Virus record (IMG/VR): IMGVR_UViG_2534681702_000003
Location: 1-33,145 of that record
Reading direction: 5' to 3' (one strand)
DNA: 33,145 nucleotides
Source of the DNA: a virus
Lineage: Duplodnaviria; Heunggongvirae; Uroviricota; Caudoviricetes
Position numbers and translations under genes: made by a program. Below are positions 1-33,145 of the stretch, one piece after another. The stretch's first letter is position 1. Every line of letters starts with the position of its first letter. The notes under the pieces were generated by a model, which saw only the letters and a program-made list of their open reading frames with translations, ran no database searches and was not told where the DNA came from.

Positions 1-1119
1 TCAAATAACCAACTTAACCCATTCCTGACCTCGAGTATCGTTATAGCGGTCGGTGGTTGCTTGGACTTTATGTCCTAGTAATGTTTTTGTATCGATACCC
101 TGTGCACGGTACAGCCGTTCTGATAGAGAACGTTGTTCATGAAATGTTGGCGGAGTTTTTCCTGCTGGTGGAATTATCCCAGCCAGCTCCCGTGCTTTGG
201 CAAAGTAGTCGCTCAGGTTGTCTTTACTCATCGGCTTTGGTTGTTTCTGGTGCCGACTATGGATTAGATATGGACTTAATATTCTGTCTCGGCACCCATC
301 AATAACTTCTTTTAACGTTATCCCAATGGCATCACAGCGTAGTGTAAGCGGTAACGCCAGACGCATTCCGGTTTTTCCCTGGGTGATATGTAAGTGTTCG
401 TTCCACACATCCGAAAAACGCATGTGGCAAATGTCATCACGGCGCTGACCAGTGACAATCGCAAGAAGCATTGCGTTACGGATAAAGTGTTTTTCAGGTG
501 TTGCGTTGTATATTTTTTGCCAGTCTTCCAGGGTGAGCCTGGCTCTGGTTACTTTAGGGATCGGTTTACGGGTAGCCTCCGGAGGATTCCATCCAGGAGG
601 AACTTCCCCTGCATGCTGTGCTTCTTTATAAATATCAACCCATAATCCGCGATTTACTCTCGCTGTACTGACCATGTCTTTATCCAGCCACTCATCCAGT
701 ATTAATGCAAAGTCTCTTACTTCCAGTTCTTTCAATGGGTGGTTTCCCAGACGGGAAACCAGATATGCAGCCATTCGAGTTTTTTCTTTGTGAGTTGTAG
801 CTGCAATATCTCCATTTTTCAGTCGCGTGTCCTGTATTTTCAGATATCGATCAACCCATGCCTTTAATCTGATACCCCGACGTTTTGTTGCTGACGGACT
901 TTCATCAATTTTGCGCATGAAATATTCAGCTTCTGCTGCAGCTATTCGCTGATTGGCTGTGGAAGCGATTTTTTCTGCCTTACCTTTGTCTGTTCCGAGT
1001 CCGTGAAATTTTCCAGTCACAGGGTTTTTATACTGGTAGTAAACCTTGCCAGTTCTGCGATCAAACTTTTCGTAAAGACCGGCTACGTCAGTGCTGTTTT
1101 TTCGTGGCCTCGGTGACAT
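1..1119 (-). CDS. int: Phage integrase, tyrosine recombinase (lambda Int-like)
   Basis: 372-aa ORF; C-terminus HEQRSLSERLY...LLGHK...DRY resembles lambda Int catalytic region (HELRSLSARLY...LLGHK...YRDDRG); AAGGAG RBS 9 nt upstream of ATG at 1119; stop codon occupies bases 1-3. Confidence 0.92.
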   Translation of the reverse strand: MSPRPRKNSTDVAGLYEKFDRRTGKVYYQYKNPVTGKFHGLGTDKGKAEKIASTANQRIAAAEAEYFMRKIDESPSATKRRGIRLKAWVDRYLKIQDTRLKNGDIAATTHKEKTRMAAYLVSRLGNHPLKELEVRDFALILDEWLDKDMVSTARVNRGLWVDIYKEAQHAGEVPPGWNPPEATRKPIPKVTRARLTLEDWQKIYNATPEKHFIRNAMLLAIVTGQRRDDICHMRFSDVWNEHLHITQGKTGMRLALPLTLRCDAIGITLKEVIDGCRDRILSPYLIHSRHQKQPKPMSKDNLSDYFAKARELAGIIPPAGKTPPTFHEQRSLSERLYRAQGIDTKTLLGHKVQATTDRYNDTRGQEWVKLVI

Positions 1120-1357
1120 GAGTTAAAATCTCCTTCAGTGCATCATCATCGCCAGTATGAATTTCCGGCGCAATTCCCGTTTCACCAGGCCCAACAAATA
1201 CTGCTCGGCGATCTATCAGCCAACGCCCACGAATTTTTTGTGGTCTTGGAACGATGTATCCTAGTTTTCCGTATTTCACCAGGGTAGTGTTTGTTATTGG
1301 GAGACTGAACCGTTTTGGTTTCCATTCGTCGAGCGTTATCAGGTACTGTTCGCTCAT
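1088..1357 (-). CDS. Putative excisionase-like small protein upstream of int
   Basis: 89-aa ORF from ATG at 1357 (GGAGTG RBS upstream); overlaps int start by 32 nt; position equivalent to xis. Confidence 0.5.
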   Translation of the reverse strand: MSEQYLITLDEWKPKRFSLPITNTTLVKYGKLGYIVPRPQKIRGRWLIDRRAVFVGPGETGIAPEIHTGDDDALKEILTHVTEATKKQH

Positions 1358-1418
1358 GGCTATCACTCCGGAACGCGCCAGTTGCAGAATATCAACGATA
1401 ACTGGCGACGGTTGAACA

Positions 1419-2759
1419 TTAAAAATCAGCCTGATTCGGGATCAGTTTTTGCCAGATAGCTGAAACGTATTTTGCCTGGTGACGAGCGTCATCAAGTGCA
1501 TTATGGCGCTCACCTTCGAATGGAATAGCCGTTCTGGCATCGAAGTCTATGGCTTTCCCCAGCTCAACGATTGTGCGTACATCGCGATCGTTGTCGTAAC
1601 GCCACGGGCAGGGGATCCCCTGCCGTTCGTATGAACGGCGCAAAATCGTGTTGTCGAAGTTGGCTCCATTTCCCCAGACCTGAACAAAAAATTCACCGGA
1701 GTTTTCGTCGATAAATTCCCGCAATTGTAACAGTGCATCATCTAACGGGATTTCATCGGTCATAATGGCAGATTGCGCTTCGCGTGATTGCTTAAGCCAC
1801 CATTTAATGGTGTCCCGATCAATGACTCCGCCAGCAGTTTCCAGATCGACAGTCTTACTAAATTCCGGTCCCATATCTCCGGTTTGCGGATCGAAAAATA
1901 TTGCACCTATTGAGATAATCGGGGCATCGGGATTTTTTCCCATGGTTTCAAGGTCGATCATCAGATGAATCCCCGCTCTGCTGGTGGATGTGAGATTATG
2001 ATGACCGTTCGCCTTAATTAAGGGATCTGACGCCTCGCCAGTTTCACTATCGCTGGCATGATGCTGATTGCCGCCAGTGTTCTCCTTGTGCTGATGCGCA
2101 GTGCCTTCCATTTCCTCCGGATCATTTTCCTGAACTTCAGGCTGATTCTCTCCATCGAATATTTCCTGGTATGTTGCGTCCCCCATCACCGCACCACAAT
2201 CAGGGCAGTTGCCGCCACCGCTCTGACCGCAGGCGGTGCAGATTTTTTCCGGTTCCTGTTGCACTACTGGTTCAGGTTGTTTCGTTTCTGGCTCGTTTTG
2301 TTGCGTATTTGGGCTGTTTTGTTCCGCTTTCTGGTCGTTCTGTTCCGTTTCTTGCTGGTTCTGGTTCACAGTATCGCGGGTTTCAATCCCCTTCACCCAT
2401 TTCGGATCATTCGGGTCGCTAATCCCTTCAATAAATTCACCACGTGATGCAGCAAGCAACTTATCGGCGTCAGGCTGGCTGATATTGGCTGCCTGCATAA
2501 TTTTGTTTACTTCGTCAGCGGTAACTTTTACCGGTTCTGGCTGTGCGGTCGTGTCAGATGCACCAGTATTTTGTTGTGAACCTGAGCATGTACTGTTTTT
2601 GCGGGCGAAATATTCTTCTTTCGTGATTTCAGTAGCCCCGGCAGCCAGCGCCTTATCCAGACCAGAAAGTTTGTTTGCGCGACCGTATTTTTCGCCATCC
2701 TTGTCGGTGAAGAGGAAGTAGAACGGCCCCTCACGCTCTACAGATGGTTCGACTTCCAC
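1419..2759 (-). CDS. DEDDh-family 3'-5' exonuclease (DnaQ-like) with Q/E/N-rich N-terminal region and Cys4 zinc-ribbon
   Basis: 446-aa ORF; motifs MIDLETMG (Exo I), VWGNGANFDNTIL (Exo II), HNALDDARH (Exo III); CTACG...CPDCG; apparent GTG start overlapping upstream gene. Confidence 0.75.
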   Translation of the reverse strand: MEVEPSVEREGPFYFLFTDKDGEKYGRANKLSGLDKALAAGATEITKEEYFARKNSTCSGSQQNTGASDTTAQPEPVKVTADEVNKIMQAANISQPDADKLLAASRGEFIEGISDPNDPKWVKGIETRDTVNQNQQETEQNDQKAEQNSPNTQQNEPETKQPEPVVQQEPEKICTACGQSGGGNCPDCGAVMGDATYQEIFDGENQPEVQENDPEEMEGTAHQHKENTGGNQHHASDSETGEASDPLIKANGHHNLTSTSRAGIHLMIDLETMGKNPDAPIISIGAIFFDPQTGDMGPEFSKTVDLETAGGVIDRDTIKWWLKQSREAQSAIMTDEIPLDDALLQLREFIDENSGEFFVQVWGNGANFDNTILRRSYERQGIPCPWRYDNDRDVRTIVELGKAIDFDARTAIPFEGERHNALDDARHQAKYVSAIWQKLIPNQADF

Positions 2760-3889
2760 TTTGCATTCGGTTTTTCGTTGTCCGGAATTGCCGTTTCCAC
2801 TGCATCAGTTTCTGGTACTGGCGACGAGAGAGTATCAGTTGCGCTCTGATTTGTTCCTTCATCTTCAAACACGCCCTTTGTAGTCAGGTATTCAGTAATG
2901 TATTTGTTCAGTGCCACAGAGTCTTTGTGAATGTCGATCGGACGTTCACGAACAAGGCCAAAAATAGTCTGGCGGTCGTAGCGAAGGGCATCAGGCTGTT
3001 TGCGCATTGATGCCGAGATACGCTTCCAGTCTTCGCGGTCGTTGTCGATAACTTCATTTTTTGCCCAGCGATGGATGCTGCCGCCAATGTTTCCGGCATC
3101 CACATCACCAGGCCAGAGAGCGTAGGCCAGTTCATCATCCAGTGTTTTCCATGTCTGCTTGTATTCGCGACGAATGACTGCAGTGACAGGGTGGATTTTT
3201 TCTGCTGAGTTTTCAGTGTACTGTTGATTGGCTCTGGCGCGGGCGAGATCAACAACAGACGTGTATTTCCCGGTTTCCTTGCGTTCACCTTCGCGACGTT
3301 TTTTCCAGATGCGCATCTCTGCCTGAATTTCGGGCCATTTGGCACCAGGCTTACATTTATGCTTAACCCACCCGATGGCATGCAGCTTAAGCTCCGGATA
3401 CATGGCGTTAACTTCTGGCATTTTCATCAACGCTTCAACGATATGTCCGTCGAATGTTGCCATGTCTTCCTGCAACAATTCCTGCGCGCTAATCACCATA
3501 TCAACGGTGATGTTTTCACATGTGTCGAACTTAACCATGACAGCGTTCTGTACTTCAGGGGCCAGCTTGTCAAAAGTGACGTTCATCGGATCTGATTCAG
3601 TCTCAACCGGGACAAAGGAAGCAGACTCCTCATCCCAGCGGTTTTCCTGCATATATTCAGCATCCCAGGAATCGAGGGCAGGGCGGGGTATACCGGGCTT
3701 ATCCTCGCAGATAATAAATTTATAAGCGCAGTCCTGAGCAGCCGGATAATGTTCCAGGAATTGCCAGTGAAATTTTGCTCGAGCACGGCGTTCGTCGCCA
3801 GCTTCAATGGCTGTGGCTACAGCCACAGCGCCTTCTTCCCTTGTTGCCAGTTCGTCAGGAATAGCGGCGCAAATAAAGACTTTACTCAT
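2738..3889 (-). CDS. Hypothetical early-left operon protein (383 aa)
   Basis: Long ORF, GAGG RBS upstream of ATG at 3889, overlaps start of exonuclease gene; no family recognised. Confidence 0.6.
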   Translation of the reverse strand: MSKVFICAAIPDELATREEGAVAVATAIEAGDERRARAKFHWQFLEHYPAAQDCAYKFIICEDKPGIPRPALDSWDAEYMQENRWDEESASFVPVETESDPMNVTFDKLAPEVQNAVMVKFDTCENITVDMVISAQELLQEDMATFDGHIVEALMKMPEVNAMYPELKLHAIGWVKHKCKPGAKWPEIQAEMRIWKKRREGERKETGKYTSVVDLARARANQQYTENSAEKIHPVTAVIRREYKQTWKTLDDELAYALWPGDVDAGNIGGSIHRWAKNEVIDNDREDWKRISASMRKQPDALRYDRQTIFGLVRERPIDIHKDSVALNKYITEYLTTKGVFEDEGTNQSATDTLSSPVPETDAVETAIPDNEKPNAKWKSNHL

Positions 3890-3969
3890 TTTGTTTTAAC
3901 CTCATTACAGATTTAAGGGTGAACAAATCCCTGCCATTGCTGGCATATAAAAATGAAACCGGATATTAA

Positions 3970-4173
3970 TTACGGTGCTGTTTTAAGTCCTGCCGGGATT
4001 TCGTTATTATCCATGTGAATAACTTTATCGACCGGATAACAGTTACCGGGAATTTTCTGTTCCACTGCGGCAACCATGCATTCTTTCATTGAGCCGTATA
4101 CGCCAGTAACCATGTCAACCGGTTCACCGGAAACAAGAAAAACCGTCAGAACAAGTGCAAATGTAGTATTCAT
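3970..4173 (-). CDS. ydfD: YdfD-like small protein with N-terminal hydrophobic segment
   Basis: 67 aa from MNTTFALVLTVFLVSG...; start overlaps dicB stop (ATGA); same position as ydfD downstream of dicB in Qin. Confidence 0.55.
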   Translation of the reverse strand: MNTTFALVLTVFLVSGEPVDMVTGVYGSMKECMVAAVEQKIPGNCYPVDKVIHMDNNEIPAGLKTAP

Positions 4174-4358
4174 TGCCAGCATCCTTTTTGCATCAGGCGT
4201 AAACGGGCCAGCATTGAAACAATGCATATTTTATCCAATAGCTCCCGTTCTTGTTTCCTCTTGTTAATGGCATCTTCAGTAAATACTGGGTTACTGATAG
4301 TGACACCAATTTCAAAACAACCTTCAGACGTATTAACGTTTGGTAATAACGTTTTCAT
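4170..4358 (-). CDS. dicB: Cell-division inhibitor DicB
   Basis: 62 aa MKTLLPNVNTSEGCFEIGVTISNPVFTEDAINKRKQERELL... matches recalled DicB almost residue for residue; GAGGGTG RBS. Confidence 0.8.
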   Translation of the reverse strand: MKTLLPNVNTSEGCFEIGVTISNPVFTEDAINKRKQERELLDKICIVSMLARLRLMQKGCWQ

Positions 4359-4527
4359 TATCGCACCCTCAACAATGAATTTTGTGATGCGGTGCCTGGT
4401 GCCTCCAGGTGACGTTAACCAGTTAACAATTAACGCCGGATACAGAGAACCCATCCATAACACTGTTTTTGGTTTTAACTGTTCCGCGTGCGCTCAGCCG
4501 CATTCACCGCATCACAAAATTCACTTT

Positions 4528-4585
4528 AAAAAGGGCAGCAGAGCAGTCACGGAGTAAAACTGATACCACCAAACGTCACCAGAAA
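4528..4585 (-). ncRNA. dicF: DicF small RNA
   Basis: Minus-strand sequence UUUCUGGUGACGUUUGGUGGUAUCAGUUUUACUCCGUGACUGCUCUGCUGCCCUUUUU matches recalled DicF, ends in U-tract, lies immediately upstream of dicB. Confidence 0.8.
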
Positions 4586-4920
4586 ATTGATAACAGAGGG
4601 CGTTGCAGCGGGGTTGTCACTTAAGCGTATGGTCAACCTGGCAACCCGGTGTCTCAATGGGGGAGGAATAACCCCGCCATACTTACCGCCGCGCCATTTC
4701 GCGGAGTGCCACAACCGGAAGCGCACGGTCGAATTAAATTTAACGACACCGTACAGTGAGACGAACTTCGCCGTGCGCTTTCGCGTTATGCCCTGGCTTT
4801 TCAGGGATATATCCTTTCAGTAAACTGTCAGTACCGGATTCTTATCCGTGTCCGGCGCACGACCACACGTGGCAGCGTGTTGGTCTCCATTTTTAACCCA
4901 GAACCTCAATGGAGGATAAA

Positions 4921-5130
4921 ATGCCAAACAAAAAAAGAAATCCGCTTATTGAAAAACAGATTGAATGCCTGGTAAATCAACTCAGGCAATCAGGGTTATT
5001 AAAAACTCATTCAGAGTTGAGGCTCACAGAATCAGCATTCGACGATAAATTAAATAATGTCCTTTATAATGGCATTATTGATTTTAATCGTTCAGTTGGT
5101 CGCCTCGGCCCTGCTGGTGTTTCCTTATAA
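4921..5130 (+). CDS. Hypothetical small protein (69 aa), opposite orientation to early-left operon
   Basis: ATG at 4921 preceded by GGAGGAT; stop abuts stop of convergent 212-aa gene; no homology recognised. Confidence 0.35.
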   Translation: MPNKKRNPLIEKQIECLVNQLRQSGLLKTHSELRLTESAFDDKLNNVLYNGIIDFNRSVGRLGPAGVSL

Positions 5131-5769
5131 TTACCAGTCAATCCAGAGCGGACCGTGTTCAGCGTAAATATAACTGTACACATCCAGATTATATTTGTGG
5201 TCTGTTAAGAACAGGCCGCAAATACATGCCGAAGCTTCCAGGGCAGCGGCTCTGTTACTGAATAACCATGTGGCAACATTCCAGCGTTTTTCTGCATCCC
5301 AGTCTTTCTCAAGGCCTGATACCATGAAGAAACCGTTAGTGTTGCCATCAAATAATTCTGTTTCCAGATTTTTAAGCAATGCCTGATGGACTCTTGCCAG
5401 GTATTCCGCCGGAATTTCGCCACGAATTCTGATGAGATTGTCATAAACAAACATGTTCCCCGCATATGGCGATTTTTCTTTCTTGTTTTTTAAACCAGCA
5501 TCATGAGCAAACTGATCAATTTCTTCTTCCGTTGGTTTCGTATTGATGTTTTGCGCTGTCGTTTCTGCAATTTTATTTGCCACACTATCTGAGTCGTGTT
5601 TATTTACAGACGCACAGAAATACAATCCGGTAAACGCATCGCGCACATTACGAGCCATATTATCAGTGTCTTTTTTCGTTACCGATTCCAATGCAAGTTC
5701 GTTCAGACGATGACGAAGTGTGTGTGCTGCAATCTCCTGGATTGAAGTAGGTAAATCTTTAAATTCCAT
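5131..5769 (-). CDS. Hypothetical protein (212 aa)
   Basis: ORF with GAGG RBS before second ATG (MEFKDL...); start overlaps stop of upstream DUF1391-like gene. Confidence 0.6.
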   Translation of the reverse strand: MEFKDLPTSIQEIAAHTLRHRLNELALESVTKKDTDNMARNVRDAFTGLYFCASVNKHDSDSVANKIAETTAQNINTKPTEEEIDQFAHDAGLKNKKEKSPYAGNMFVYDNLIRIRGEIPAEYLARVHQALLKNLETELFDGNTNGFFMVSGLEKDWDAEKRWNVATWLFSNRAAALEASACICGLFLTDHKYNLDVYSYIYAEHGPLWIDW

Positions 5770-5780
5770 CGTCAACCTCA

Positions 5781-5933
5781 TCAGTCAGAGTTTCTTGCTA
5801 ACCAGCGATGCGCGCCAGCTTCGGTTTTAAACGTTTTGCTTTTGGTATACGTCATCGCGGTGAACGTGCCGTCCTGGTTGGGAAACACGCCGCACACCAG
5901 AGATTCGTTGTTGCCAAGATCGATAGTATCCAT
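5781..5933 (-). CDS. YdfA/YdaF-like small protein (DUF1391-like)
   Basis: 50 aa MDTIDLGNNESLVCGVFPNQDGTFTAMTYTKSKTFKTE... resembles recalled YdaF/YdfA; GAGG RBS. Confidence 0.55.
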   Translation of the reverse strand: MDTIDLGNNESLVCGVFPNQDGTFTAMTYTKSKTFKTEAGAHRWLARNSD

Positions 5934-6014
5934 GTTGACCTCATTTCCCCTTAACGCCGGGGTAGCGGAACAAAAACCTGCTGCATAGTTATTAAAGTTG
6001 AACCCTGCCGTCAT

Positions 6015-6225
6015 GTTCTTACGCCTCGGGCTGGCTACTTAACCCCTGACCACTGCCGGGTAACTCGAAGTATTGCCCTGCATTCTGTGGGGTGGAGTGA
6101 GGGAATGAATGAAGTTTAGAAAAATGAACTTTACAGGTCAATGTTTTTTTATCAAAACATTTTAAGCAGGCAGCTGTTAAGCCATCACCACGATGGCATA
6201 CAGTTAATCAAATAGATGAGGTTGG
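6015..6225. promoter_or_regulatory. Putative leftward early promoter/operator region (pL/OL-like)
   Basis: Non-coding gap downstream of cI; contains GTTTTTTTATCAAAAC (6143-6158) sharing the GTTTT-N6-AAAAC pattern of the cI-cro intergenic sites. Confidence 0.4.
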
Positions 6226-6864
6226 TTAAATATCTTGTTGAATTTTAAAGCATACGCCCAATATGCAAGATAGATCATCCAGCATAATTGAAGGGTAGCG
6301 AGGATTCGTGGGGACTAAAAGAATATCCGGCCCTTCTATCTCCAGTTTACGAATGACAGGTGTTGTGGTCCCTTTGGGTAAGGCAAGGACAATATTTCCT
6401 GGTTGTACGGTTCGATCGGGATCAACAAAAACTGTTGAACCATTTGGGATGGAAACTCCCCCACCAGATGTTGACATACTGTCACTCTCTAGAACAACTG
6501 CAAAGGTATTGGCCGGGATTTCTCCGACAAGCTGCACACAAGAGGTTATTGAGGAATTTTTCATATAATCACTCCAGCTTGCTGCCTGCTGAAGTGATAG
6601 TAGCGGAACCGTTTTTATCGGCGGTAAAGATAGATCAAGCGAATCACCTGTATTTAACTCTCCTCCATTAAGAAGCCAATTTTCGTTTACTTTCAATATC
6701 TTTGCCAGTGAACTTATGTAACGCGAGGACGGCGCTCCTCCACCGTTCATCCATTGACTTACGGAGCCTTTTGATGCGCCAGTGGCATTGACAAGGTCTT
6801 TGCCTTTCAGGTTTAGCGCATGCATACGTTGGGTTATGCGTTCAGATATTGTTTGCTTGCTCAT
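6226..6864 (-). CDS. CI-like prophage repressor (N-terminal HTH, C-terminal S24 LexA-like peptidase)
   Basis: 212 aa; HTH LKGKDLVNATGASKGSVSQW; C-terminal ...AVVLESDSM... (GDSM-like catalytic Ser motif); divergent from cro-like gene. Confidence 0.88.
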   Translation of the reverse strand: MSKQTISERITQRMHALNLKGKDLVNATGASKGSVSQWMNGGGAPSSRYISSLAKILKVNENWLLNGGELNTGDSLDLSLPPIKTVPLLSLQQAASWSDYMKNSSITSCVQLVGEIPANTFAVVLESDSMSTSGGGVSIPNGSTVFVDPDRTVQPGNIVLALPKGTTTPVIRKLEIEGPDILLVPTNPRYPSIMLDDLSCILGVCFKIQQDI

Positions 6865-6955
6865 GTTTTGATTTTAAAACACAGATGGTTTTGTTTCTTG
6901 ACTTTCTTTGGTTTTGATTATTAAACTTTTGGCGTTCAGTTTTATGGAGCGACTC
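6865..6955. promoter_or_regulatory. Divergent promoter/operator region between cI and cro-like gene
   Basis: Two 16-bp sites GTTTTGATTTTAAAAC (6865-6880) and GTTTTGATTATTAAAC (6911-6926), imperfect palindromes, about 46 bp apart. Confidence 0.55.
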
Positions 6956-7186
6956 ATGAAAAAATCAGAAGTATTAGGCTATTTTGGCGGAGTTGTTAAA
7001 ACAGCCGCAGCTCTAGGAACGTCAAAAACCACAGTCAGCATGTGGGGGGAAGAGGTTCCGTGGAAATGGGCGTTGCTAATTCAGGCAGTCACTGCCGGGG
7101 CGCTCAAATATGAGTTACACATACCGACGGTTGTCATTCCCGGTTCTGATCATAATCCGCCTTCTAACCAAGGGGGGGATTCATGA
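6956..7186 (+). CDS. Cro-like HTH regulator (YdaS-like)
   Basis: 76 aa from ATG 6956 (GGAG RBS); first gene of rightward operon opposite cI. Confidence 0.65.
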   Translation: MKKSEVLGYFGGVVKTAAALGTSKTTVSMWGEEVPWKWALLIQAVTAGALKYELHIPTVVIPGSDHNPPSNQGGDS

Positions 7187-7608
7187 AAATCAAGCATGAA
7201 CACATCCGCATGGCGATGAATGCCTGGGCGCGTCCTGATGGCGAAAAAGTTCCAGCAGCTGGAATAACCCAGGCTTATTTTGAGTTGGGTATGACGTTCC
7301 CAGAACTGTATGACGACAGCCATCCGGAAGCCCTGGCTCGCAATACCCAGAAAATTTTCCGCTGGATAGAGAAAGACACCCCTGATGCAGTTGAAAAAAT
7401 TCAGGCGTTGTTACCAGCGATCGAAAAGGCAATGCCACCTTTGCTGGTGGCCAGAATGCGCAGCCACAGTTCAGCTTATTTTCGGGAGCTGGTGGAGACG
7501 CGGGAGCGACTGGTGAGAGACGCTGATGATTTTGTCGCAGTGGCAATCGCCGGTTTCAATCAGATGAACCGTGGTGGCCCGGCAGGAAATGCTGTGGCAG
7601 TGCATTGA
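7183..7608 (+). CDS. YdaT-like protein (proposed CII functional analogue)
   Basis: 141 aa starting MKIKHEHI..., as recalled for YdaT; start overlaps cro-like stop. Confidence 0.55.
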   Translation: MKIKHEHIRMAMNAWARPDGEKVPAAGITQAYFELGMTFPELYDDSHPEALARNTQKIFRWIEKDTPDAVEKIQALLPAIEKAMPPLLVARMRSHSSAYFRELVETRERLVRDADDFVAVAIAGFNQMNRGGPAGNAVAVH

Positions 7609-7679
7609 GTGATAATAGCCATATCGAATCACTTCCGGCAACTCGTGAGTAAAAAGATTCGGTATCAGAAGAGGTGAGT

Positions 7680-8750
7680 ATGGCTAACGCCTGGCTCAGA
7701 TTATGGCATGACATGCCAAATGACCCTAAGTGGCGAACAATTGCCAGGGTGTCAGGGCAGTCAATTGCAACAGTGATGGCAGTGTATATCCACCTCCTGG
7801 TGAGCGCGTCACGAAATGTCACGCGAGGTCACATTGATGTCACGACAGAAGATTTGGCAAGTGCGCTCGACGTGACAGAAGAGGTAATTGATTCAATTTT
7901 GCAGACGATGCAGGGGCGGGTACTTGATGGTGATTTAATCACTGGATGGGAAAAACGCCAGGTGCTTAAAGAGGACAACGGCAATATTTCGCAAACCGCA
8001 AAATCTCCTGCAGAGCGCAAGAGGGCGCAGCGAGAGAGGGAAAGAAAGCGGGAACAAAATGGCGATTGTCACGGCGCGTCACGAAATGTCACGCACATGT
8101 CACGACGAGTCACGACAGATAAAGATACAGATAAAGATACAGATCAAGAAGATCAAAACACTATGGTCCATGGCGTAAAAAACGCCACGAACCAGGCAGG
8201 GGATGTTCAGACCGTCAATCTTGGTCAGCCAGCAGGCACGACACCGGAAGCCGATTCAGCGTATGCGCTGAAAGCCGATTCGGGCGCTGTGCAGCAGGTG
8301 ATGACCGCAAGGCCGGAGCAATCACACCAACTGCAGCAGCCTGAAGCCGATTCCGCCATTCAGCGGGAAGCCGATCGGGTAGTCACGGAAAACACCGGGC
8401 AGCCTGTGAGACGAGTGGATTATCCGGATGTGTTCGAACAGGTCTGGCGGGAATACCCGTTGCGTGCTGGGGCAAACCCGAAGAAATCCGCTTTCAGTGC
8501 CTGGAAGGCCAGATTACGCGAGGGGGTGTCACCAGAGGCCATGCTGGATGGCGTGAGGCGTTACGCAAGATACCTTGCGGCTACCGGGAAAACGGGAACG
8601 GAATTTGTTCAGCGAGCGACGACGTTTTTTGGACCGGACCGGAATTTTGAAAACCCCTGGCTGCTCCCGGTAAGCGGCACGAACAACCAGCGTTGTGTGA
8701 ATCATATTTCTGAACCGGATACCGAAATTCCACCGGGCTTCAGGGGGTAA
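7680..8750 (+). CDS. Replication initiation protein (O-like)
   Basis: 356 aa; position after cro/cII analogue; two iteron clusters embedded in the coding sequence as in lambda O. Confidence 0.65.
   Translation: MANAWLRLWHDMPNDPKWRTIARVSGQSIATVMAVYIHLLVSASRNVTRGHIDVTTEDLASALDVTEEVIDSILQTMQGRVLDGDLITGWEKRQVLKEDNGNISQTAKSPAERKRAQRERERKREQNGDCHGASRNVTHMSRRVTTDKDTDKDTDQEDQNTMVHGVKNATNQAGDVQTVNLGQPAGTTPEADSAYALKADSGAVQQVMTARPEQSHQLQQPEADSAIQREADRVVTENTGQPVRRVDYPDVFEQVWREYPLRAGANPKKSAFSAWKARLREGVSPEAMLDGVRRYARYLAATGKTGTEFVQRATTFFGPDRNFENPWLLPVSGTNNQRCVNHISEPDTEIPPGFRG
7804..7847. repeat. Iteron cluster I (4 x GTCACG at about 10-bp spacing)
   Basis: GTCACG at 7808, 7818, 7828(GTCAC), 7839; shares 19-bp GCGTCACGAAATGTCACGC with cluster II. 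Confidence 0.7.
8066..8160. repeat. Iteron cluster II plus AT-rich tandem repeat (putative ori)
   Basis: GTCACG at 8068, 8078, 8088, 8099, 8109 (10-11 bp periodicity), then GATAAAGATACA x2 and GATC-containing AT-rich stretch. Confidence 0.7.
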
Positions 8751-8790
8751 GTGTTGATTTCTGGTCATGAGGTAATTTTCAGGAGGACTT

Positions 8791-9213
8791 GTGGCAAAAG
8801 TTTTTACACAAGAAGAGCGGGAAAAAATTAAAGGGCAGGTTGTTGAACTCGTACGCCAGAGTGGGCGCGAGACGTTACGACAACTGGAAACTAAAACTGG
8901 GGCAACAAGATATCTGATGAGCGTTCTGGCCAGAGAGCTGGTTGCCAGTGGCGATGTATACAACTCTGGTTACGGGTTATTCCCGTCTGAACAGGCGCGT
9001 AAGGACTGGCAAAATGCCCGTAAAAAGCTCTCAAGGGCAAAGCTGAAGAAACCATCTGCGGTTGATCCGGACCTTATCTGGTCATTACCTGACGGAGAAA
9101 TACGTCGCTACGACAGGCGTCAGAACATAATCTGTCGCGAGTGCCGGAAGAGTGAGGTTATGCAGCGAGTGCTGGCGTTTTATCAGGGTAATTTTCAGGA
9201 GGTGATGGCGTGA
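8791..9213 (+). CDS. Hypothetical protein (140 aa), replication-module position
   Basis: GTG start with AGGAGG RBS; no family recognised. Confidence 0.55.
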   Translation: MAKVFTQEEREKIKGQVVELVRQSGRETLRQLETKTGATRYLMSVLARELVASGDVYNSGYGLFPSEQARKDWQNARKKLSRAKLKKPSAVDPDLIWSLPDGEIRRYDRRQNIICRECRKSEVMQRVLAFYQGNFQEVMA

Positions 9214-9505
9214 GAGTGAGAGTCTATATCGCCGGTCCAATGACCGGGTATAAAAATTTCAACCGTGAGGCGTTTCACAATGCGGAAGAGGAACTGAAAC
9301 GGGAAGGGCATACCGTTTTAAATCCGGCTGTGCTTCCGGATGGGCTGACACAGCCGCACTACATGGATATTGCATGGCAATGATTCGTTGTGTGGATGCG
9401 ATTTACATGCTGAAAGGCTGGCAGCGGTCAGCAGGTGCTAAGGCAGAACTGGCGCTGGCGGAGAAACTGGGGCATGCAGTTATTTTCCAGGAGGAGGTAC
9501 AGTGA
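9210..9505 (+). pseudogene. DUF4406-like (nucleoside 2-deoxyribosyltransferase-like) gene split by a frameshift
   Basis: N-part VRVYIAGPMTGYKNF...HYMDIAWQ stops at 9381-9383; C-part MIRCVDAIYMLKGWQRSAGAKAELALAEKLG... continues in another frame from 9380. Confidence 0.5.
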
Positions 9506-9777
9506 ATATCGACGCAACAATGACGATTGGTACGGCCCTCAATACGGGGCTGGCGCTTCTTGGTTGGTGCTACATCATGTTCTGCTCATGGCGGTGGCTG
9601 TCACTGATGTTACTGAAAGAATGGAATAAACGCTGTAAACAGACGCAGCGGCAGAAGGCAATGAATGCGTTTTTTGAGACCTTCGATATTGACAGTATAG
9701 AACCAGGAGAGCCAGCTCGCGTGATTAGCAGAGGTGACGTTGTAATTCTTGTATACCGGAGTGAAGAGAAAGCATAA
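9502..9777 (+). CDS. Hypothetical small membrane protein (91 aa)
   Basis: GTG start after AGGAGGAGG; one predicted hydrophobic helix. Confidence 0.45.
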   Translation: MNIDATMTIGTALNTGLALLGWCYIMFCSWRWLSLMLLKEWNKRCKQTQRQKAMNAFFETFDIDSIEPGEPARVISRGDVVILVYRSEEKA

Positions 9778-11831: not shown

Positions 11832-12154
11832 TGCAAAAATTTCCTGTAAAAAATAATTACATACTTAAGATACTACAAAGAATAATGCGTACGCAAAATT
11901 TTTTGTTGAGTAGAATATGTTCGCGGGGTATTTTTCGTTAAGATATAATTACCATGGTAACTTTTGCGTTGGTAATGCATTATGTGGTGGAGAAAAAGAG
12001 AGAGTCTTATCTTTAAATTATCGCCAGCCTATATGACTATATGAGTAGTATTTAGATGGGAAATTGTTGAGTTATTGAAAGGAACCATAACCTTTATGTA
12101 AAATTACTGCGGGTGCTTGAGGTTATCTGTCTCAGGCATGCCACCAAAAGGCAG

Positions 12155-12232
12155 ATAGAGAAAAGCCCCAGTTAACGTTACGCGTCCTGCAAGACGTTTA
12201 ACATTAATCTGAGGCTCAATCTATGAACGGCA
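12155..12232 (-). ncRNA. Predicted Sok-like antisense RNA
   Basis: Inferred from hok/sok organisation; candidate minus-strand promoter TTGCCT-17-TAACCT inside mok 5' end; boundaries approximate. Confidence 0.3.
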
Positions 12233-12435
12233 AATCTAGGTTAGCCTCTTACGTGCCGAAAGGCAAGGAGAAGCAGGCTATGAAGCAGCAAAAGGCGATG
12301 TTAATCGCCCTGATCGTCATCTGTTTAACCGTCATAGTGACGGCACTGGTAACGAGGAAAGACCTCTGCGAGGTACGAATCCGAACCGGCCAGAAGGAGG
12401 TCGCTGTCTTCACAGCTTACGAACCTGAGGAGTAA
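12223..12435 (+). CDS. Mok-like in-frame leader ORF overlapping hok
   Basis: 70-aa ORF whose last 51 codons are hok; same arrangement as mokC/hokC. Confidence 0.5.
   Translation: MNGKSRLASYVPKGKEKQAMKQQKAMLIALIVICLTVIVTALVTRKDLCEVRIRTGQKEVAVFTAYEPEE
12280..12435 (+). CDS. Hok/Gef-family type I toxin
   Basis: 51 aa MKQQKAMLIALIVICLTVIVTALVTRKDLCEVRIRTGQKEVAVFTAYEPEE, near-identical in pattern to recalled Gef/HokC; AAGGAG RBS. Confidence 0.85.
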   Translation: MKQQKAMLIALIVICLTVIVTALVTRKDLCEVRIRTGQKEVAVFTAYEPEE

Positions 12436-32878: not shown

Positions 32879-33145
32879 ATGCTGCCGCAGCATAGCGATA
32901 TTGAAATAGCCTGGTATGCTTCGATACAGCAGGAGCCGAATGGCTGGAAGACCGTCACCACACAGTTCTACATCCAGGAATTCAGTGAGCATATTGCGCC
33001 ACTTCAGGATGCTGTAGATCTGGAGATCGCAACGGAGGAAGAAAACTCGTTGCTGGAAGCCTGGAAGAAGTATCGGGTGTTGCTGAACCGTGTTGATACA
33101 TCAACCGCACCTGATATTGAGTGGCCGACTTCACCTGCAGAGTAA
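32879..33145 (+). pseudogene. Tail fibre assembly (tfa) 3' fragment
   Basis: 88-aa ORF ending ...[53 protein letters not shown], matching recalled lambda Tfa C-terminus; too short for a complete tfa. Confidence 0.6.

Follow-up and report, generated by a model that had tools for sequence, protein, structure and literature searches.

The locus at positions 3970 to 4585 of the DNA analysed here (the window, 33,145 nucleotides of the IMG/VR record IMGVR_UViG_2534681702_000003) raises the question whether a dicF-dicB-ydfD module with two nucleotide changes in its small RNA is still the module known from the Qin prophage of E. coli K-12, and how it fits into the operon of its own phage. A preliminary description, made without database searches, had recognised dicF, dicB and a gene for a small protein with a hydrophobic N-terminal segment inside an early-left operon, with coordinates that proved accurate. 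Our analysis leaves little doubt that the locus is a dicBF-type module of the canonical kind, placed in the early-left operon of a potC-adjoining lambdoid prophage from an ETEC-type E. coli, for which sequence identity, family membership, preserved pairing and leader homology are established below. It is an ordinary dicF-dicB-ydfD module in another lambdoid backbone, a situation already known as common (PMC5069750, PMC7873438).

The prophage and the upstream part of the operon

The window is about 100% identical to annotated ETEC chromosomes, with 99.97% identity over positions 1-9700 to a potC-adjoining prophage in ETEC strain 504838 and related human isolates. The immunity region and the promoter-proximal part of the operon contain the following features.

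6908-7186, plus strand: P22-Cro-like gene, divergent from the repressor gene
6226-6864, minus strand: CI-like repressor, 212-aa ORF with an HTH and a peptidase S24 domain (Pfam Peptidase_S24 50.5 bits; HTH_3 22 bits, below the cut-off of 23)
6113-6155, minus strand: two overlapping sigma-70-like sites between the repressor and ydfA-like genes, candidate early-left promoter (consensus scan only)
5781-5933, minus strand: ydfA homologue, DUF1391, 50 aa, first gene of the operon (Pfam PF07151, 103 bits, above the curated cut-off)
5131-5769, minus strand: gene for a 212-aa protein with function-less annotation (phrog_2151, PHROGs E 5e-145), in the position of K-12 ydfB/ydfC
4921-5130, plus strand: opposite-strand gene for a 69-aa protein (phrog_4274, PHROGs E 9e-51), WP_001133036.1 in RefSeq

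On the minus strand, the order runs from the repressor gene through the promoter-like sites, the ydfA-like gene, the 212-aa gene, the 69-aa gene (on the plus strand), the leader, dicF, the spacer, dicB, the ydfD-like gene and an exonuclease gene to xis and int, an arrangement that makes "early-left operon" a fair label. The placement first proposed for the module is borne out by the CI-like repressor, the P22-Cro-like gene and the position of xis and int far to the left.

The preliminary description had found no ydfABC-like ORFs upstream of dicF, which is incorrect for ydfA. A tblastn search with K-12 YdfA aligned to 5933-5787 with 92% identity, and only ydfB and ydfC are missing; with K-12 YdfB and YdfC as queries, the best E value in the entire window was 0.9. 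The 69-aa gene on the opposite strand had also been overlooked. It lies tail-to-tail with the 212-aa gene with no spacer between them and is convergent with the dicF operon, such that its transcription could limit transcription of the operon. Neither the 212-aa nor the 69-aa protein gave a match in Pfam, NCBIfam or PADLOC, DicB being the sole match when the cassette proteins, DicB and the YdfD-like protein were scanned with PADLOC and NCBIfam, and tblastn of the 69-aa protein against the phage collection gave none.

K-12 DicA matches only the N-terminal (HTH) part of the repressor (37% identity). The repressor carries SDSM and RK motifs, which we take to be the Ser/Lys dyad of S24 peptidases, and this dyad suggests RecA-stimulated self-cleavage and not the Rem antirepressor route of DicA. 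The region above position 5971 is unrelated to K-12 dicA/dicBp. Regulation therefore differs from that of Qin, as the promoter/operator region has no homology to dicBp. In the identical prophage of RefSeq, only the C-terminal 113 aa of the repressor are annotated, as a "LexA family protein", and the cro-like gene and another gene are marked as frameshifted; the 212-aa repressor ORF is open in the window. Other RNAs in the window are a sok antitoxin RNA (hok/sok-type) at 12111-12285 (plus strand, 108.7 bits), tRNA-Met(CAT) at 16528-16603 and tRNA-Arg(TCT) at 16701-16777 (both plus strand) in the late-regulatory region, and, near the right end at 32902-33105 (plus strand), a match to IS009 RNA with 129 bits.

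DicF and its two substitutions

The sRNA and its 3' hairpin occupy the following positions.

4533-4585, minus strand: DicF sRNA, 53 nt, with the U-tail continuing to 4528; C18U (4568) and C49U (4537) relative to K-12 (Rfam, K-12 alignment, allele comparison)
4534-4570, minus strand: DicF terminator/Hfq-type hairpin, DicF nt 16-52 (Rfam structure line, ViennaRNA)

A whole-window scan with the Rfam covariance model of DicF (RF00039) gave a match at 4533-4584 on the minus strand with 66.9 bits (E 8e-13; model positions 1-52 of 52), compared to a gathering score of 48 bits, so that recognition of dicF at 4528-4585 from the sequence alone was correct. No non-canonical pairs are flagged in the RF00039 structure line. 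The K-12 sequence scores 76.7 bits under the same model; the window DicF is thus about 10 bits lower and still far above the threshold. Alignment of the window with K-12 Qin places DicF at 4585-4533 and gives exactly two mismatches, C18U and C49U. These are the changes GGCGG to GGTGG and GCCGCC to GCTGCC that had been noted in the preliminary description.

Both substitutions fall in the terminator stem. In the Rfam and ViennaRNA structures of K-12 DicF, C18 pairs with G50 and G19 with C49, and in the window these become adjacent U-G and G-U wobbles. The changes are not mutually compensatory; each keeps its own base pair. Since two adjacent G-C pairs have become G-U wobbles, the predicted hairpin loses 4.8 kcal/mol in stability (ViennaRNA, −11.1 vs −15.9 kcal/mol in K-12), with a 3' stem-loop whose dot-bracket structure equals that of K-12, followed by UUUUU. 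The lower hairpin energy and the drop of 10 bits in the Rfam score imply that reduced termination or stability may apply. A simple terminator scan did not report the DicF hairpin, because its stem is interrupted and its loop large, which is a limit of the scan and not counter-evidence. Around the DicF 5' end, which RNase E generates in K-12, the window and K-12 have the same sequence.

Pairing was computed against the leader of K-12 ftsZ, as the host's own ftsZ lies outside the window. RNAduplex paired DicF nt 26-36 with positions −12 to −2 of ftsZ, the Shine-Dalgarno region, and this stretch of DicF is unchanged from K-12. Of the two altered residues, U18 acquires a new partner in A+13 of ftsZ, and U49 still pairs with G-25, now in a wobble. 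Duplex energies are −39.5 kcal/mol for the window allele and −38.5 kcal/mol for K-12, and the net cofold gain, with self-structure counted, is −19.7 vs −13.9 kcal/mol. Published work on DicF describes pairing of its 3' region with the ftsZ ribosome-binding site and of its 5' end with xylR and pykA (PMC5069750); the 5' end in the window has the K-12 sequence. In answer to the question whether the substitutions reach the ftsZ-pairing seed, neither falls within the loop that pairs with the Shine-Dalgarno sequence, and on the pairing map predicted here the ftsZ pairing of the window DicF is not weakened. C18U and C49U are, on the evidence of sequence, wobble-preserving changes of the terminator stem that do not touch the targeting sequences. 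Their effect would at most be a weaker hairpin, possibly with more read-through and easier opening for ftsZ pairing.

Leader and dicF-dicB spacer

The non-coding regions on either side of dicF are divided as follows.

4862-4908, minus strand: cassette-specific sequence with no K-12 homology, upstream of the 69-aa gene on the plus strand and including its GGAGGA ribosome-binding site (alignment breakpoint)
4586-4861, minus strand: conserved leader of the DicF precursor, homologous to the spacer between ydfC and dicF in K-12 (pairwise alignment, dicB loci)
4710-4790, minus strand: long imperfect leader stem of about 22 bp, with arms at 4790-4767 and 4733-4710 and an exchangeable apex (RNAalifold, local fold)
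4359-4532, minus strand: dicF-dicB spacer, i.e. the dicB 5' UTR, closed by a 28-bp stem (4532-4505 with 4394-4366) in which the dicB Shine-Dalgarno sequence lies; fold −68.2 kcal/mol

A long precursor leader upstream of dicF had been proposed, and it had been presented as a contrast to Qin. The first part of this proposal is supported, as the homologous K-12 spacer is the published precursor for RNase III/RNase E processing; the contrast is wrong. Window positions 4861-4586 (about 275 nt) align, with long runs of identity, to the 340-nt non-coding ydfC-dicF spacer of K-12, and the leader is common to most of 86 dicB loci that were collected from GTDB representatives and IMG/VR. In most of these loci the conserved block starts at 4861 or 4801 and continues through dicF, dicB and ydfD. 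Given this recurrence, the leader belongs to the module and only 4862-4908 is specific to the local cassette. The leader (4861-4586) and the spacer share more than 90% identity with K-12 and are better conserved than the ydfD coding sequence. Leader and dicF-dicB spacer thus travel with dicF as one conserved processing unit, and the upstream genes and the immunity region are swapped.

RNAalifold analysis of 30 distinct leaders gave a stem of about 22 bp with conserved arms and an apical part in two interchangeable versions. Locally, this stem has a z score of about −2.6 against mononucleotide shuffles; the whole leader did not fold better than shuffled sequence (z = −1.5). Nearly all pairs are invariant in the 30 leaders, with one covarying pair, and because the stems are almost invariant, covariation speaks neither for nor against them. 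Searching Rfam over 4586-4950 at E values up to 10 returned only noise. The stem apex at 4735-4766 (minus strand) is a mosaic, being either of the K-12 type or of an unrelated type shared by the window and locus L005; the two are swapped between otherwise similar leaders with constant arms.

For K-12, RNase III has been described to yield a 190-nt DicF species and RNase E to make the 5' end of the 53-nt form (PMC10448788). A 190-nt RNA that ends at 4533 would begin at about 4721-4722, within the 3' arm of the leader stem, and on account of this length the stem at 4710-4790 is probably the RNase III substrate that gives the "190-nt" DicF of PMC10448788. A 72-nt form of DicF has likewise been described as an RNase III product, with the 3' end of the 53-nt form arising from termination (PMC5069750), and its 3' end would land at about 4514, inside the 28-bp closing stem of the spacer. 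The predicted long stems therefore coincide with the expected ends of the published 190-nt and 72-nt RNase III products (PMC10448788, PMC5069750). Within the 28-bp stem, the window has G-C and C-G where K-12 (L002) has G-U and U-G, the reverse of the change in the DicF terminator, and all four C/U combinations occur at these analogous positions among the 86 loci.

The spacer also resembles the Rfam family STnc100 (RF02076), to which 4381-4521 (minus strand) matches with 39.2 bits and the K-12 spacer with 34.4 bits, fitting the closing stem of the model and a CACC-GGAGGCACC-GG hairpin. With 39.2 bits the spacer falls short of the gathering score, 47 bits, and is a relative of STnc100 at best and no member by the Rfam criterion; STnc100 and the dicB 5' UTR of related prophages may be one element.

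dicB, the ydfD-like gene and the downstream region

Downstream of the spacer lie three further features.

4170-4358, minus strand: dicB, cell-division inhibitor, 62 aa (Pfam PF05358, 132.1 bits, cut-off 27; NCBIfam NF049927, 132.4 bits, cut-off 100)
3970-4173, minus strand: ydfD-like gene, DUF1482, 67 aa (Pfam PF07358, 81.5 bits, cut-off 25)
3932-3945, minus strand: predicted terminator-like hairpin between the ydfD-like and exonuclease genes, conserved with K-12 (consensus scan, alignment)

The two proteins read off the sequence in the preliminary description are both secured by these family matches. DicB is identical to the K-12 protein at 59 of 62 residues (95%), with the changes N42D, P57Q and A61W, and by this similarity it would block division through disruption of the FtsZ ring. 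The small protein with a hydrophobic N-terminus, MNTTFALVLTVFLVSG, belongs to the DUF1482/YdfD family and shares 48 of 63 residues (76%) with K-12 YdfD; its start codon overlaps the dicB stop codon in ATGA, and it is 4 aa longer as a result of a 1-nt deletion that precedes the K-12 stop. RefSeq names it "DUF1482 family protein" and not YdfD, and a scan of the protein against NCBIfam gave no match. YdfD of K-12 acts in lysis through inhibition of IspG (PMC8835842), and by homology the ydfD-like gene is likely to encode a lysis protein of this kind.

The RefSeq records identical to the window annotate dicB and leave out dicF, so that dicF can be added to them, a point of little weight beyond annotation. 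The neighbouring 823-aa exonuclease gene (phrog_2082) encodes an Rv2179c-like 3'-5' exoribonuclease domain at its C-terminus. A 1-nt deletion in a T/A homopolymer near 2775, compared to the otherwise identical RefSeq prophage, breaks it into ORFs at 2738-3889 and 1419-2759 (minus strand), which reflects either a genuine pseudogene or a sequencing error in the homopolymer.

Distribution and significance of the double-U allele

The allele with both substitutions is rare. Its exact 58-nt dicF sequence was found in 24 of 3,923 dicF-bearing E. coli records, the K-12 form being two mismatches away, and among the 86 dicB loci it is confined to the window-type prophage, with no single-substitution intermediate. 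It is also present in module copies 97.3% and 96.5% identical to the window, which implies that it is inherited, and C stands at positions 18 and 49 in a module copy of 94.5% identity that shares the upstream cassette. A sequencing artefact was ruled out, the same allele being present in 24 independent records that include diverged copies. Up to five dicF places are found per genome, with two in strains that carry the double-U allele.

Such an allele offers a natural test of terminator strength in the balance of DicF and DicB, and it could itself represent a functional retuning, in which less termination would give more read-through into dicB and the ydfD-like gene, shift the DicF:DicB ratio and let the 3' arm open more easily for ftsZ. 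The predicted energies point in this direction, both for the hairpin (−11.1 vs −15.9 kcal/mol) and for net ftsZ binding (−19.7 vs −13.9 kcal/mol), and so do the constant pairing of the two changes with no single-change intermediates in the 86 loci, their persistence in module copies diverged by 3-4%, and the opposite, strengthening change (G-U/U-G to G-C/C-G) in the downstream RNase III stem of the same phage. If so, an SOS-inducible ETEC prophage would make relatively more DicB and YdfD-like protein than Qin, and a DicF that anneals faster to ftsZ. We nevertheless consider this unlikely, as no near-neutral change is commoner in RNA stems than C-to-U opposite G, a −11 kcal/mol hairpin with five U behind it remains a normal intrinsic terminator, the four C/U combinations at the analogous positions of the downstream stem imply free G-C/G-U drift, and the allele is rare with its 24 records. 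It also appears quite unlikely that the dicF of the window has no role of its own and drifts as a redundant copy. Both substitutions retain their base pairs, the targeting sequence, the flank of the RNase E site, the U-tail, dicB and the ydfD-like gene are all intact, leader and spacer are conserved beyond the ydfD coding sequence, and the allele has been kept across diverged copies; against this stand the other dicF copies of the hosts (up to five places, two in double-U strains), the partial decay of the prophage, with its exonuclease gene split by the 1-nt homopolymer deletion and the frameshifts that RefSeq marks in the cro-like and another gene, and the Rfam score 10 bits under that of K-12.

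A source of DicF other than the early-left transcript, i.e. a promoter inside the leader, or silencing of dicF by convergent transcription from the 69-aa gene, is highly improbable. The cassette with the opposite-strand gene does lie between promoter and dicF, and an earlier description of a promoter ahead of dicB is cited in PMC10448788. However, the experiments described in the same work (primer extension, RT-PCR and Northern) derive K-12 DicF from the polycistronic dicBp transcript and detected no internal promoter, and in the window a consensus scan found no minus-strand promoter-like site in 4586-4908. The canonical module thus remains the preferred reading.

Beside these readings stand the loci in which the position of dicF is filled otherwise. 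In many dicB loci (L013-L020, L031, L044 and L046), leader and dicB 5' UTR are retained and another hairpin, e.g. CCTTTTGGCGGGTATTCGTTTTGTTTTTCCCGTGATACCCGCCCCTTTT, takes the place of dicF about 230 nt upstream of dicB, and L008, L021 and L080 also carry a differing hairpin at this position. When six of them were scored with RF00039, L008, L021 and L080 reached 38-44 bits, below the threshold, and L013, L019 and L044 gave no match. Nine further loci have dicB with neither dicF nor leader, with homology ending at window position 4442. As unrelated hairpins occur there in other loci, the dicF position can be viewed as an exchangeable sRNA slot; a wider speculation, in which C18U/C49U are a selected retuning of the terminator and the "dicF slot" between leader and dicB 5' UTR is an exchangeable sRNA cassette, seems doubtful to us.

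Proposed expression of the module

For the canonical module, a course of events can be proposed in which expression, processing and protein functions are carried over from K-12. Inactivation of the CI-like repressor would allow early-left transcription through the ydfA-like gene, the 212-aa gene and the structured leader of about 320 nt. RNase III cleavage of the long stem in the leader would release an RNA of about 190 nt, which RNase E would trim to the 53-nt DicF, as in K-12 Qin, and the 3' end would be set by the intrinsic terminator of DicF itself or, for the 72-nt form, by RNase III cleavage of the 28-bp stem downstream. Together with Hfq, the loop and 3' region of DicF would pair with the ftsZ ribosome-binding site and the 5' end with metabolic mRNAs. 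Read-through transcripts would provide DicB, which is expected to inhibit FtsZ-ring formation, and the translationally coupled YdfD-like lysis protein.

Comparison with known dicBF systems

Compared to Qin (ydfABC-dicF-dicB-ydfDE in K-12), the window keeps the order ydfA, leader, dicF, spacer, dicB, ydfD and exonuclease-like gene, with more than 90% nucleotide identity from 4861 to 3890, a DicF that differs by 2 nt, and DicB, YdfA and YdfD proteins with 95%, 90% and 76% identity, respectively. The predicted RNase III stems, the sequence at the DicF 5' end and the ATGA overlap of dicB and ydfD are shared as well. Unlike Qin, the window has the 212-aa gene and the opposite-strand 69-aa gene instead of ydfB and ydfC, a repressor with an S24 self-cleavage domain where DicA of Qin is relieved by the antirepressor Rem, two wobbles in the DicF terminator and a YdfD that is 4 aa longer, and its prophage retains int, xis and late genes.

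Multiple dicF copies have been described in prophages of EHEC O157:H7 (PMC5069750, PMC7873438), and in the prophages surveyed in PMC5069750 dicBF occurs in several contexts, with ydfABC confined to Qin-like ones. The window-type ETEC prophage was the only one in which the double-U allele turned up, and the phage records listed among our matches, unlike the window, do not have the upstream cassette, their matches starting at window position 4861 or below (query position of at least 340). Such records, for example those of phages Tritos and mEp460, share about 90-92% identity with 4861-3900, and like the window, the O157:H7 prophages and phages such as Tritos and mEp460 carry dicF-dicB(-ydfD) in the early-left region of differing lambdoid backbones.
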